From a virus: a DNA stretch of 47,447 bases. The DNA lies in the IMG/VR virus record IMGVR_UViG_3300045988_093480, positions 1-47,447 of that record; one strand, written 5' to 3'. Shown here in pieces: positions 1,457 to 2,714 of this stretch. Position numbers and translations under genes: made by a program. How positions within the stretch are numbered: the stretch's first letter is position 1; every line of letters begins with the position of its first letter. Below the pieces are notes generated by a model. It saw nothing but the letters and a program-made list of their open reading frames with translations. It did not search any database and was not told the DNA's origin.

Positions 1457-1485
1457 AAGGCTAGAGAATTCATTTCTCCAGCCTT
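1457..1485. terminator. Bidirectional intrinsic terminator
   Basis: 12-bp stem AAGGCTAGAGAA/TTCTCCAGCCTT (one G-U pair) with a T-rich tract on the plus strand. It lies between the int side and the convergent small ORF. Confidence 0.6.
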
Positions 1486-1530
1486 ATTATTTATTTATTA
1501 TCTTCTGAGATATACTCCCCTAGCCTGCCA

Positions 1531-1614
1531 TTACATCATTATCAATATAGCACTTGCTACTCCAATTCCTAGATATGCAATGCGCCCTGTTACTTCCAAT
1601 GCTAGTTTTTTCAT
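1531..1614 (-). CDS. 27-aa hydrophobic peptide MKKLALEVTGRIAYLGIGVASAILIMM (candidate small membrane toxin / type I toxin-like)
   Basis: Too short for the ORF track. RBS AGGAGG 8 nt upstream of the ATG. Own promoter TTGAAA(1685..1690)-18 nt-TATAAA(1661..1666). Terminator 1457..1485 downstream. Confidence 0.5.
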   Translation of the reverse strand: MKKLALEVTGRIAYLGIGVASAILIMM

Positions 1615-1660
1615 AGCCAATACCTCCTGTTTATTAAGAGCATCGACCTTATATGGAATA

Positions 1661-1725
1661 TTTATACAAATTTTAGAAAAATTTTTTCAAATTCGCTTGA
1701 CTATTGGTAACCAATAGTATATTAT
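1661..1725. promoter_or_regulatory. Back-to-back divergent promoters with an operator palindrome
   Basis: Plus strand: TTGACT (1697..1702), 17-nt spacer, TATTAT (1720..1725). The spacer contains the perfect palindrome ATTGGT-A-ACCAAT (1703..1715). Minus-strand promoter as described for the 27-aa ORF. Confidence 0.5.
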
Positions 1726-1762
1726 ATAAGTATAATAAATAATAAGAAAGGGGTTAAGAAAG

Positions 1763-2215
1763 ATGAAAAGAAATTTAATGAAAGAAGCTCATAAAATGAC
1801 AAAAGAAATAAAAGAACAATATCCAGAAGTAGATTATCAAGCTCAATTAGGTTTATGCTTATCTTTCTTAGCTCAAGAGAGTAAAAAGGAAGGGGAAAAG
1901 AAAATGACAATAATAAATAGAAAAAAATTCTTTAATGAGGTTAATAAATGGGATATATATAAATATCTAGAAAATAACTTTACAAAAGAAATTACACATC
2001 ATTCAGCAGACGTAGGAAAAAATATATATGAAGTAAGATTTTATTTAGACGAAACTAAAAAACATATATTTTTACATTGTTACCATGATGAAGACGGTTG
2101 GAGAGATTTCGATTATTTTGTAGGGGGTTTATTAAGATTTGTAAAAGAAAGTGAAGAAAATAAAGAAAAAGCAACTGAAATGTTTAGATATTTCGATTGT
2201 GTTGAATCAGAGTAA
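1763..2215 (+). CDS. Hypothetical moron protein (150 aa) with a possible nested in-frame start at 1904
   Basis: ORF with RBS AAAGGGG. An internal ATG at 1904 is preceded by GGAAGGGG. No recognisable catalytic motif. Confidence 0.7.
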   Translation: MKRNLMKEAHKMTKEIKEQYPEVDYQAQLGLCLSFLAQESKKEGEKKMTIINRKKFFNEVNKWDIYKYLENNFTKEITHHSADVGKNIYEVRFYLDETKKHIFLHCYHDEDGWRDFDYFVGGLLRFVKESEENKEKATEMFRYFDCVESE

Positions 2216-2227
2216 AGGAGAAATAAC

Positions 2228-2425
2228 ATGGAACAAAGACAATTAAAAGTGAGTTGTTGTAAAGCTGGAGGCAATGCAAGTAAAAATGCATTGTCTTACA
2301 AGTTAACTCTTCCAGTAGCATGGATTAAAGAAATGGGTATTAGTCCAGAAGATAGGGAAATAACAGCTACTTTTGAAAATAATAAAATTATAATAGAAAA
2401 GGGGAATAAAAATGAAAGCTTATAA
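2228..2425 (+). CDS. AbrB/SpoVT/MazE-like small DNA-binding protein
   Basis: 65 aa with RBS AAGGAG. The segment SYKLTLPVAWIKEMGI...ITATFENNKIIIEK resembles the swapped-hairpin AbrB fold signature. Confidence 0.6.
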   Translation: MEQRQLKVSCCKAGGNASKNALSYKLTLPVAWIKEMGISPEDREITATFENNKIIIEKGNKNESL

Positions 2426-2666
2426 AACAAGAACTTGGAATGATTACAAAATCTTAAAGGAGGATTCTATCAACACAGTTGATGTAAGTGAAATAGCAGA
2501 AGTAAAATTAGCTGAAAAAAATGGGGAACAATATATATTTGGAATAACAAATCATATAGATGATATATGGTGGCAAGGGTTCAAATTAGAATATGAATAC
2601 GATGGTAGAGATTTATTCGAGTTATATCATCTATATAGAGAAGATTATATAATAAATAATCGTTAA
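2412..2666 (+). CDS. Hypothetical 84-aa protein, translationally coupled to the AbrB-like gene
   Basis: Overlaps the upstream ORF by 14 nt. RBS AAGGGG. No family recognised. Confidence 0.65.
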   Translation: MKAYKTRTWNDYKILKEDSINTVDVSEIAEVKLAEKNGEQYIFGITNHIDDIWWQGFKLEYEYDGRDLFELYHLYREDYIINNR

Positions 2667-2687
2667 TTAATTTTAATTAAAATAAAA

Positions 2688-2714
2688 AGGACTAGAGTTA
2701 TTCTAGTCCTTTTC
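2688..2714. terminator. Intrinsic terminator of the moron operon
   Basis: 9-bp stem AGGACTAGA/TCTAGTCCT flanked by an A-run and a T-run. Confidence 0.7.

Follow-up and report, generated by a model that had tools for sequence, protein, structure and literature searches.

Does the small locus between the integrase and the lysis genes of the viral record IMGVR_UViG_3300045988_093480 encode a toxin with its antitoxin, a trait for the lysogen, or a set of proteins directed against the defences of the host? The stretch of DNA analysed here, referred to as the window, comprises 47,447 nucleotides (nt) of that record, and the interval followed up spans positions 1457-2714. The original prediction, made from the sequence alone, described a gene for a hydrophobic peptide of 27 amino acids (aa), back to back with an operator-controlled operon of three genes, which we name A (150 aa), B (65 aa, AbrB-like) and C (84 aa); L-numbers designate related loci. 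Every sequence feature that it listed was found in place, including, as letters, a TATACT box. We read the locus as a self-repressed accessory cassette, most likely serving counter-defence, in a temperate phage that infects Intestinibacter bartlettii or a close relative, and give this reading about an even chance of being right. Comparative evidence supports the regulation proposed here; the role in counter-defence we infer from association.

Gene B and its operator

The predicted operon promoter (TTGACT-17-TATTAT, 1697-1725, plus strand) agrees with the consensus at 10 of 12 positions and is unchanged in all loci that carry the cassette. This AT-rich region shows no enrichment of promoter-like hexamers (14 against an expected 12.1), so promoter calls rest on their conservation and not on the scan. 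The operator, a perfect 9-1-9 palindrome of 19 bp (ACTATTGGT-A-ACCAATAGT, 1700-1718), lies across the -35 element and the spacer. The palindrome ATTGGT-A-ACCAAT noticed originally is present and is longer than had been reported. It occurs a single time in the window, where 0.08 occurrences are expected by chance.

Gene B (2228-2425, plus strand) encodes a predicted DNA-binding protein of the AbrB/SpoVT/MazE fold. The protein falls in phrog_2329 (E 8e-23), and PF04014 (MazE_antitoxin) matches all ten aligned members of its family, with a best E of 1.5e-4 and every match under the gathering score. In hhalign against the N-terminal domains of AbrB, Abh, SpoVT and MazE, residues 14-61 of B align with AbrB residues 4-50 at 85.8% probability. 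These sub-threshold and profile matches bear out the AbrB-like assignment made from the sequence. B ends four residues past the aligned stretch, or about 4-7 past the AbrB domain; the tails of MazE and VapB measure about 30 residues or more. The names SymE and PemI, which some B homologues carry, are automatic annotation only. An identity with SymE was rejected, as PF08845 matched one of ten members (E 0.054) and hhalign to E. coli SymE gave a probability of 0.2%.

The palindrome and B vary together among relatives. Loci of the window's group, L031, L163 and L164 combine the operator ATTGGT(N)ACCAAT with a B protein bearing ..KAGG.A.K..(L/V)(S/N)(Y/P)K..LP (the K-type), L024, L148, L150 and L151 combine ATTCG(N1-3)CGAAT with ..KSGGT...GG.(T/S)(N/T)R...P (the R-type), and L149 has a third B variant with ATTGC-ACC-GCAAT. 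The central base of the operator varies between A and T, and where the alternative B variant is present both half-sites have changed in step, one from G to C and the other from C to G. The switch from TTGG/CCAA to TTCG/CGAA is found only where the N-terminal half of B changes; the palindrome is kept throughout, and the flanking genes do not track the switch. In L024 and L144, the A leader seen in the window goes with the second B type and operator. In L030, that B type and that operator stand together with an unrelated, acidic first gene and a gene C identical to that of the window, a combination indicating that neither A nor C sets the operator. Matching operators also lie in the promoters directly flanking B in L148, L163 and L164. 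The simplest reading is that B binds the palindrome, and because the site spans the -35 element and the spacer, such binding would repress the promoter. B is the only constant gene of the cassette family and is best read as the autorepressor of the operon and the constant core of the cassette. The original description of back-to-back promoters with an operator-controlled operon is thereby supported.

Further variation was observed around B and its promoter. Positions 563-907 of L022 encode a 114-aa protein that combines an XRE-type helix-turn-helix (HTH) with a B-like domain of AbrB type at its C-terminus; the cassette immediately downstream of it has a promoter with no palindrome and lacks the small open reading frame (ORF) for the 27-aa peptide. 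The IMG/VR contigs of L135/L145, L136/L146 and L137/L152 hold two B paralogues per phage, one in an A-B cassette with a TTGG operator and the other, R-type and promoterless, behind an SNF2 helicase gene about 5 kb away. Just 5' of the operon -35 element, the stretch TTTCAAATTCGC (1653-1696) is retained even where the small ORF is absent (the equivalents in L031 and L035), and it may be an UP element or belong to a longer B site.

Exchangeable cargo on either side of gene B

Gene A (1763-2215, plus strand) reads as two units, a leader and a cargo domain. The leader (1763-1903) comprises about 45 aa that form a helical hairpin followed by a Gly/Glu/Lys linker, and its residues 1-45 are highly conserved and joined to diverse C-termini in 286 proteins. 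The cargo domain (1904-2215) is an acidic alpha/beta domain of 103 aa with a Shine-Dalgarno (SD) sequence of its own (GGAAGGGG, 1885-1892) before an ATG at 1904. An AlphaFold2 (AF2) model of the whole protein, with a predicted local distance difference test score (pLDDT) of 87.5, shows this succession of hairpin (helices 5-19 and 25-45), linker and alpha/beta domain; the cargo domain is modelled as two helices, a four-stranded sheet and two helices, at a pLDDT of 77-94 by 10-residue block, mostly above 85.

The nested in-frame start noticed originally looks like a genuine and conserved feature. A methionine stands at the domain junction in nearly all members of the A family, and six diverged members, among them Clostridium perfringens phages phiSM101 and phiCp-D and Clostridioides difficile phage phiCD38-2, have an SD-like G-run and an ATG there, spaced as at the true start. 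The two units are also found apart. A frameshift in I. bartlettii genome GCA_047246845.1 (L168) leaves a 50-aa leader ORF and a 103-aa domain that begins at the junction methionine, a stop codon in the linker of L169 creates a separate 42-aa leader ORF, and the cargo domain is annotated alone as a 103-aa protein in I. bartlettii (P0004). Given the conserved junction and the split ORFs, the start at 1904 is very likely used.

Gene C (2412-2666, plus strand) overlaps B by 14 nt and encodes an acidic orphan protein (isoelectric point 4.8) of five beta-strands and a C-terminal helix (AF2 pLDDT 90). Two distant, small homologues were recovered among 1.8 billion representatives, and C is confined to three small homologue groups, all in this phage group. 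It matched nothing in Pfam, PHROG, PADLOC, NCBIfam or the sequences of the PDB, and in Foldseek its fold matched nothing in the PDB or BFVD (best E 0.2 in both) and resembled no solved toxin. The A model likewise found no match in the PDB by Foldseek (best E 0.1). The original prediction had recognised no family for either protein, and structure prediction added no PDB fold match.

Several candidate relationships were discarded. Similarity of A to the TscA antitoxin (E 0.003) is below threshold and appears in 3 of 20 family members, and a calpain penta-EF-hand match of its C-terminal domain (phmmer against the PDB, E 0.003) finds no EF-hand loop in the AF2 model. Residues 8-55 of C reach an E of about 2e-4 against P0138 and P0139 through six summed repeats only, and the similarity of P0135 to C is a low-complexity artefact. 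P0138 and P0139 are large metallopeptidase-linked proteins whose repeats of about 50 residues resemble beta-propeller blades. More speculatively, C might oligomerise into a ring.

The genes flanking B are replaced or absent in related phages, and by this comparison they form exchangeable cargo. In the first slot, leader-bearing A variants of 150, 136-144, 126 and 95 aa have unrelated C-terminal domains; the other occupants are unrelated acidic proteins of 127 and 175 aa, small membrane proteins and an SNF2 helicase gene. The third slot holds C, an 82-aa protein starting MNKWYRLG with an 8-nt overlap, a 78-aa cysteine-rich protein, a 158-aa protein or a terminator, so that C is one of at least four alternatives downstream of B. 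None of the cargo variants on either side of B has a Pfam or PHROG annotation, and the proteins of the locus match nothing in the PADLOC and NCBIfam libraries.

The module is kept in more than 60 metagenomic and viral loci, and its features exceed what chance would give. By the ratio of non-synonymous to synonymous polymorphism (pN/pS), the 27-codon ORF and the three operon genes are real genes under purifying selection: the A cargo domain (0.14) and C (0.15) have the lowest values, followed by the small ORF (0.25), the A leader (0.39) and B (0.41). Near-identical proteins occur in hundreds of gut metagenome contigs and in I. bartlettii genome GCA_047246845.1. The locus, and 17 kb of the window, gave no megablast match to GenBank phages, which means that there is no cultured close relative. 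In over 60 fetched loci the cassette adjoins the endolysin gene, next to a serine or a tyrosine integrase or directly at the junction of prophage and host. In larger phages it is also found in early regions, where it follows a gene for ThyX, dCMP deaminase or an SNF2 helicase.

The divergent peptide gene, the solitary CRISPR repeat and the flanks

The 27-codon ORF (MKKLALEVTGRIAYLGIGVASAILIMM, 1614..1531, minus strand) has AGGAGGT 8 nt upstream (SD GGAGG, 1627..1623), which confirms the strong ribosome binding site of the original prediction, and it is kept in most related loci. Its SD is conserved, its stop position is kept as TAA or TAG, and its substitutions are conservative. A putative promoter (1661..1690, minus strand), read from the sequence, consists of a -35 element TTGAAA (1690..1685), an 18-nt spacer and a -10 element TATAAA (1666..1661); the block GGAATATTTATACAAATTTTAG that contains it is invariant wherever the ORF is present, and the untranslated region (UTR) downstream varies. 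In seven of seven variants of this 5' UTR, a hairpin is predicted in which a pyrimidine-rich stretch 7-9 nt upstream pairs with the SD; compensatory covariation cannot arise in it, the SD side being fixed. The DNA of codons 14-22 hardly varies, which is compatible with a constraint on the RNA and is no proof of one.

The peptide had been likened to type I toxins. It is a real membrane-type peptide, and like the type I toxins of Firmicutes prophages (Fst, TxpA and BsrG-like toxins, and the type I systems of C. difficile prophages) it is short and prophage-borne, has one hydrophobic segment and has an SD predicted to be sequestered in a 5' hairpin. Unlike them, it has no toxin homology and no conserved antisense promoter, and its hydrophobic stretch comprises only 16 residues at the extreme C-terminus. 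Searches of Pfam, PHROGs, PADLOC, NCBIfam and Rfam and a tblastn search of phages matched no known type I toxin. The TATACT box (1511-1516) that had been suggested as an antisense promoter has a poor -35 element, and its sequence is not conserved among loci that keep the ORF. The small ORF is missing from cassettes sited elsewhere in phage genomes, which marks it as a separate module.

A solitary repeat of CRISPR type (for clustered regularly interspaced short palindromic repeat), AAGAGCAAGCAATATCCATTAAAACAAGGATTAAAAC (2745-2781, minus strand), lies just outside the interval. It matches Rfam CRISPR-DR7 (RF01320) over model positions 1-37 of 37 at 41.9 bits (gathering score 37, E 1e-6), and it is present as a single copy in the window, with neither spacers nor cas genes. 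An extended -10 element read from the sequence (TGCTATAAT, 2792..2784, minus strand) lies 2 nt upstream of the repeat and is invariant in 24 of 24 repeat-carrying loci; in these loci the repeat unit is almost invariant and the terminator downstream is conserved as well. The predicted RNA of about 100 nt (2792..2684) has a strong fold (z -6.7) in which the repeat hairpin is preserved. The core repeat is found in genuine arrays beside cas1 in Clostridia, including, among the matches listed, Tepidibacter formicigenes of the Peptostreptococcaceae; I. bartlettii is not among the matches listed in the genome scan for repeat arrays. The handle in the window is AUUAAAAC, and the CRISPR-DR7 family consensus is AUUGAAAC. 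Tried as a guide directed at other phages, the 29 nt after the repeat matched no loci in IMG/VR besides those of the phage family itself.

Solitary repeats with promoters in phages have been described as RNA anti-CRISPRs (Racr) and are often found near anti-CRISPR (acr) genes (PMC10651486). As in those units, there is here one repeat with an intact hairpin and a 3' handle, free of spacers and cas genes, with a promoter immediately upstream, and the unit is conserved in related phages. By analogy, we regard the repeat RNA as a candidate RNA anti-CRISPR, whose effect would be to titrate Cas6 or Cas7.

The original view that the locus is accessory cargo, sited with the att region on one side and the lysis genes on the other, is supported. 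A tyrosine integrase gene (69-1196) flanks the locus on one side, and on the other an Amidase_2 endolysin gene (3670..2906, minus strand) lies with holin and tail fibre genes on the same strand. Terminators are present on both sides, as had been claimed. A bidirectional hairpin at 1460-1485 (folding z -2.4 and -2.9 on the two strands) appears to end the small-ORF transcript and to insulate the locus from the integrase and att side; different hairpins occupy the equivalent spot in other integrase variants, and between loci with different integrases DNA similarity begins exactly at the stop codon of the small ORF. A bidirectional intrinsic terminator at 2684-2714 (z -3.3 and -4.2, with the better U-tract on the minus strand) would be common to the operon on the plus strand and the CRISPR-repeat small RNA on the minus strand. 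The terminator of the lysis operon (2808..2835, minus strand) lies upstream of the small-RNA promoter. Just past the integrase gene, 1166-1244 and 1382-1428 contain GTCAGTAAA / TGTCAGTAAAAA motifs repeated in direct and inverted orientation, which look like the arm-type integrase binding sites of attP.

The neighbourhood differs among relatives. In the GCA_047246845.1 prophage, positions 5950-8612 of L168 hold two further cassettes between gene C and the endolysin gene. Tandem repeats of TATCGGTCGC are present in both, as is a TTGACT promoter whose palindrome, TCACG-N4-CGTGA, recurs in the 5' UTR. Each cassette encodes a leader-domain protein (322 or 155 aa), followed in the second by an HTH_59/excisionase-like protein. 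The integrase-amidase interval of C. difficile phage phiCDKH01 (L002, 2500-4060) contains a duplicated module, in which a promoter with a spacer palindrome precedes a 42-aa basic peptide with a transmembrane (TM) segment and a terminator; a 51-55-aa two-TM protein comes next and adjoins or overlaps a B homologue. This arrangement indicates that the B family is coupled to small membrane proteins in C. difficile phages. IS605-family OrfB/TnpB genes with a Cas12f-like TNB domain are inserted beside the lysis module in L005, L009, L012, L022 and L023, often with a small serine-recombinase/MerR gene. L008 (5465-6296) and L018 (5624-6455) have an HNH/NUMOD homing-endonuclease gene and a small ribbon-helix-helix (RHH) gene between endolysin and holin.

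What the cassette may do

The layout matches that of acr operons with anti-CRISPR-associated (Aca) regulators, but with a regulator of the AbrB fold. Like those operons, the locus has a strong promoter with an inverted-repeat operator, a gene for a small conserved DNA-binding protein in the operon, small and diverse orphan partners that turn over between phages, operator and regulator specificities that travel together, and an adjacent solitary CRISPR repeat, as in reported acr-racr loci. It differs from them in that B has the swapped-hairpin fold of AbrB/SpoVT and is the middle gene instead of the last. Of the known Aca regulators, Aca1-13 are HTH proteins and Aca14, described in 2026, is an RHH protein (PMC13551039).

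Another close parallel is the AcrIB2 operon of phiCD38-2, which is highly transcribed in lysogens (PMC10732046). It directly follows the lysis genes, where the lysogeny region borders on them, and the A leader is found in its first gene, gp25, at 54-62% identity over about 35-46 aa, with an SD and ATG at the domain junction. We take AcrIB2 to be gp27, since two unknown genes are placed upstream of it (PMC10732046) and PHROGs show split homologues. The two loci thus share their genome position, the leader and acidic cargo proteins. The AcrIB2 locus differs in having no B homologue and no palindrome of the window's type, and gp27 is unrelated to the A C-terminal domain and to C, neither of which shows similarity to AcrIB2.

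On a counter-defence reading, host RNA polymerase would fire the operon promoter when the DNA enters the cell, with low-level expression in the lysogen. Translation of the transcript would give A at its full 150 aa, the 103-aa cargo domain by itself from the internal start, B, and, through translational coupling, C. Dimers of B would then bind the palindrome and occlude the promoter, so that the cargo would be made in an early pulse and afterwards held low, as Aca repressors do for anti-CRISPR operons. The A C-terminal domain and C, which are small, acidic and aromatic-rich, would be candidate inhibitors of host immunity. The convergent unit (2792..2684) would add the one-repeat RNA of about 100 nt as a candidate RNA anti-CRISPR, and the divergent membrane peptide would be a separate module. 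With the leader on its 5' side and B on its 3' side, the cassette would offer homology for the swapping of cargo by recombination.

Several observations weigh against this reading. L022 has the first B type and a promoter without the palindrome, and the association of operator with B may reflect one or two evolutionary switches and hence carry limited statistical weight. Paralogues of B are also found behind a helicase gene, lacking a promoter of their own, so the targets of B may not be limited to its own operon. No cargo protein resembles a known Acr or anti-defence family by sequence or fold. No array with the ATTAAAAC handle was found among the genome-scan matches listed or in the JGI metagenomes. 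No Aca regulator of the AbrB/SpoVT/MazE type is reported in the 2026 survey of Aca regulators (PMC13551039).

The original prediction saw in B and C the antitoxin-then-toxin order of a type II toxin-antitoxin system, in which B would be an AbrB/MazE-type antitoxin that represses the operon and neutralises C, with A as an accessory. The fold of B, the 14-nt overlap, the gene order, a palindromic promoter operator of the kind typical of conditional autoregulation and the PemI and SymE labels all fit that picture, and B shares with MazE, VapB and PemI the DNA-binding fold class and a palindrome in its own promoter, to which it is predicted to bind. We nevertheless consider such a pair highly improbable. 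B stands without C in L031-34 and L039 and before other downstream genes in L040, L132-144 and L156, under the same operator, and exchangeable partners together with the lack of a toxin fold in C argue against a dedicated pair. Moreover, B has no C-terminal extension past its DNA-binding domain to serve as a toxin-binding tail and no obligate partner, E. coli SymE fails to align with it, and C is acidic, matches no toxin family and is restricted to this phage group. An equally slight chance attaches to B being a developmental regulator, acting in the early/late or lysis-lysogeny decision, with A and C as ordinary early proteins and the operon as core and not cargo. It is true that genes for SNF2 helicase, ThyX and dCMP deaminase precede B paralogues in early operons, that some phages have two paralogues with different predicted specificities (L135/L145, L136/L146, L137/L152), and that A-family proteins lie at the end of the early regions of phiSM101 and phiCp-D. 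The single palindrome in the window, however, leaves no other strong B site there, the partner genes are not conserved as core functions would be, and the cassette is missing from many related phages that share the lysis and integration modules.

A prophage-beneficial moron is likewise unlikely, though by no means far-fetched. Here A, C and perhaps the 27-aa peptide would protect the lysogen through superinfection exclusion, abortive infection or another conversion trait, and B would only set their expression. The locus does occupy the very end of the prophage beside att, where it borders on host genes in L016, L020, L021 and L168, and it has its own sigma-A promoter and terminators. Lysogens transcribe the corresponding region of phiCD38-2. 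Furthermore, small membrane proteins are typical exclusion factors, and the B homologues of phiCDKH01 are coupled to such proteins at the same position. Set against this, no defence family of PADLOC or Pfam was matched, the same cassette is found inside the early or replication regions of larger phages, away from att, and the adjacent solitary repeat and the AcrIB2 parallel point to offence rather than defence.

The self-repressed counter-defence cassette may be an instance of something wider, which we put forward tentatively and hold to be rather less probable than not. The proposal is that phrog_2329 is a new Aca-like class of autorepressors marking portable counter-defence cassettes in phages of the Peptostreptococcaceae and other Clostridia, including those of C. 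difficile. The A C-terminal domain and C would then be new immunity inhibitors and the solitary repeat an RNA anti-CRISPR, and the 45-aa leader with its restart site would be a plug-in slot that drives cargo translation and supplies 5' homology.

Anti-defence genes are found mainly through their association with HTH-type Aca regulators, a route that works poorly in Clostridia, and the only validated C. difficile Acr was reportedly found through an AP2-domain neighbour. If the proposal is true, the phages of gut Peptostreptococcaceae and C. difficile could be mined by a second handle, an AbrB-fold regulator whose operator code can be read (TTGG for the K-type, TTCG for the R-type), and the present locus nominates two proteins and one small RNA as candidates. 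An AbrB/MazE-like gene with an overlapping small ORF should not be annotated by default as a toxin-antitoxin system, and the labels "SymE toxin" and "PemI" are unsupported here. The leader of gene A with its internal restart offers a testable case of one ORF that may give two products and form a recombination slot for cargo.

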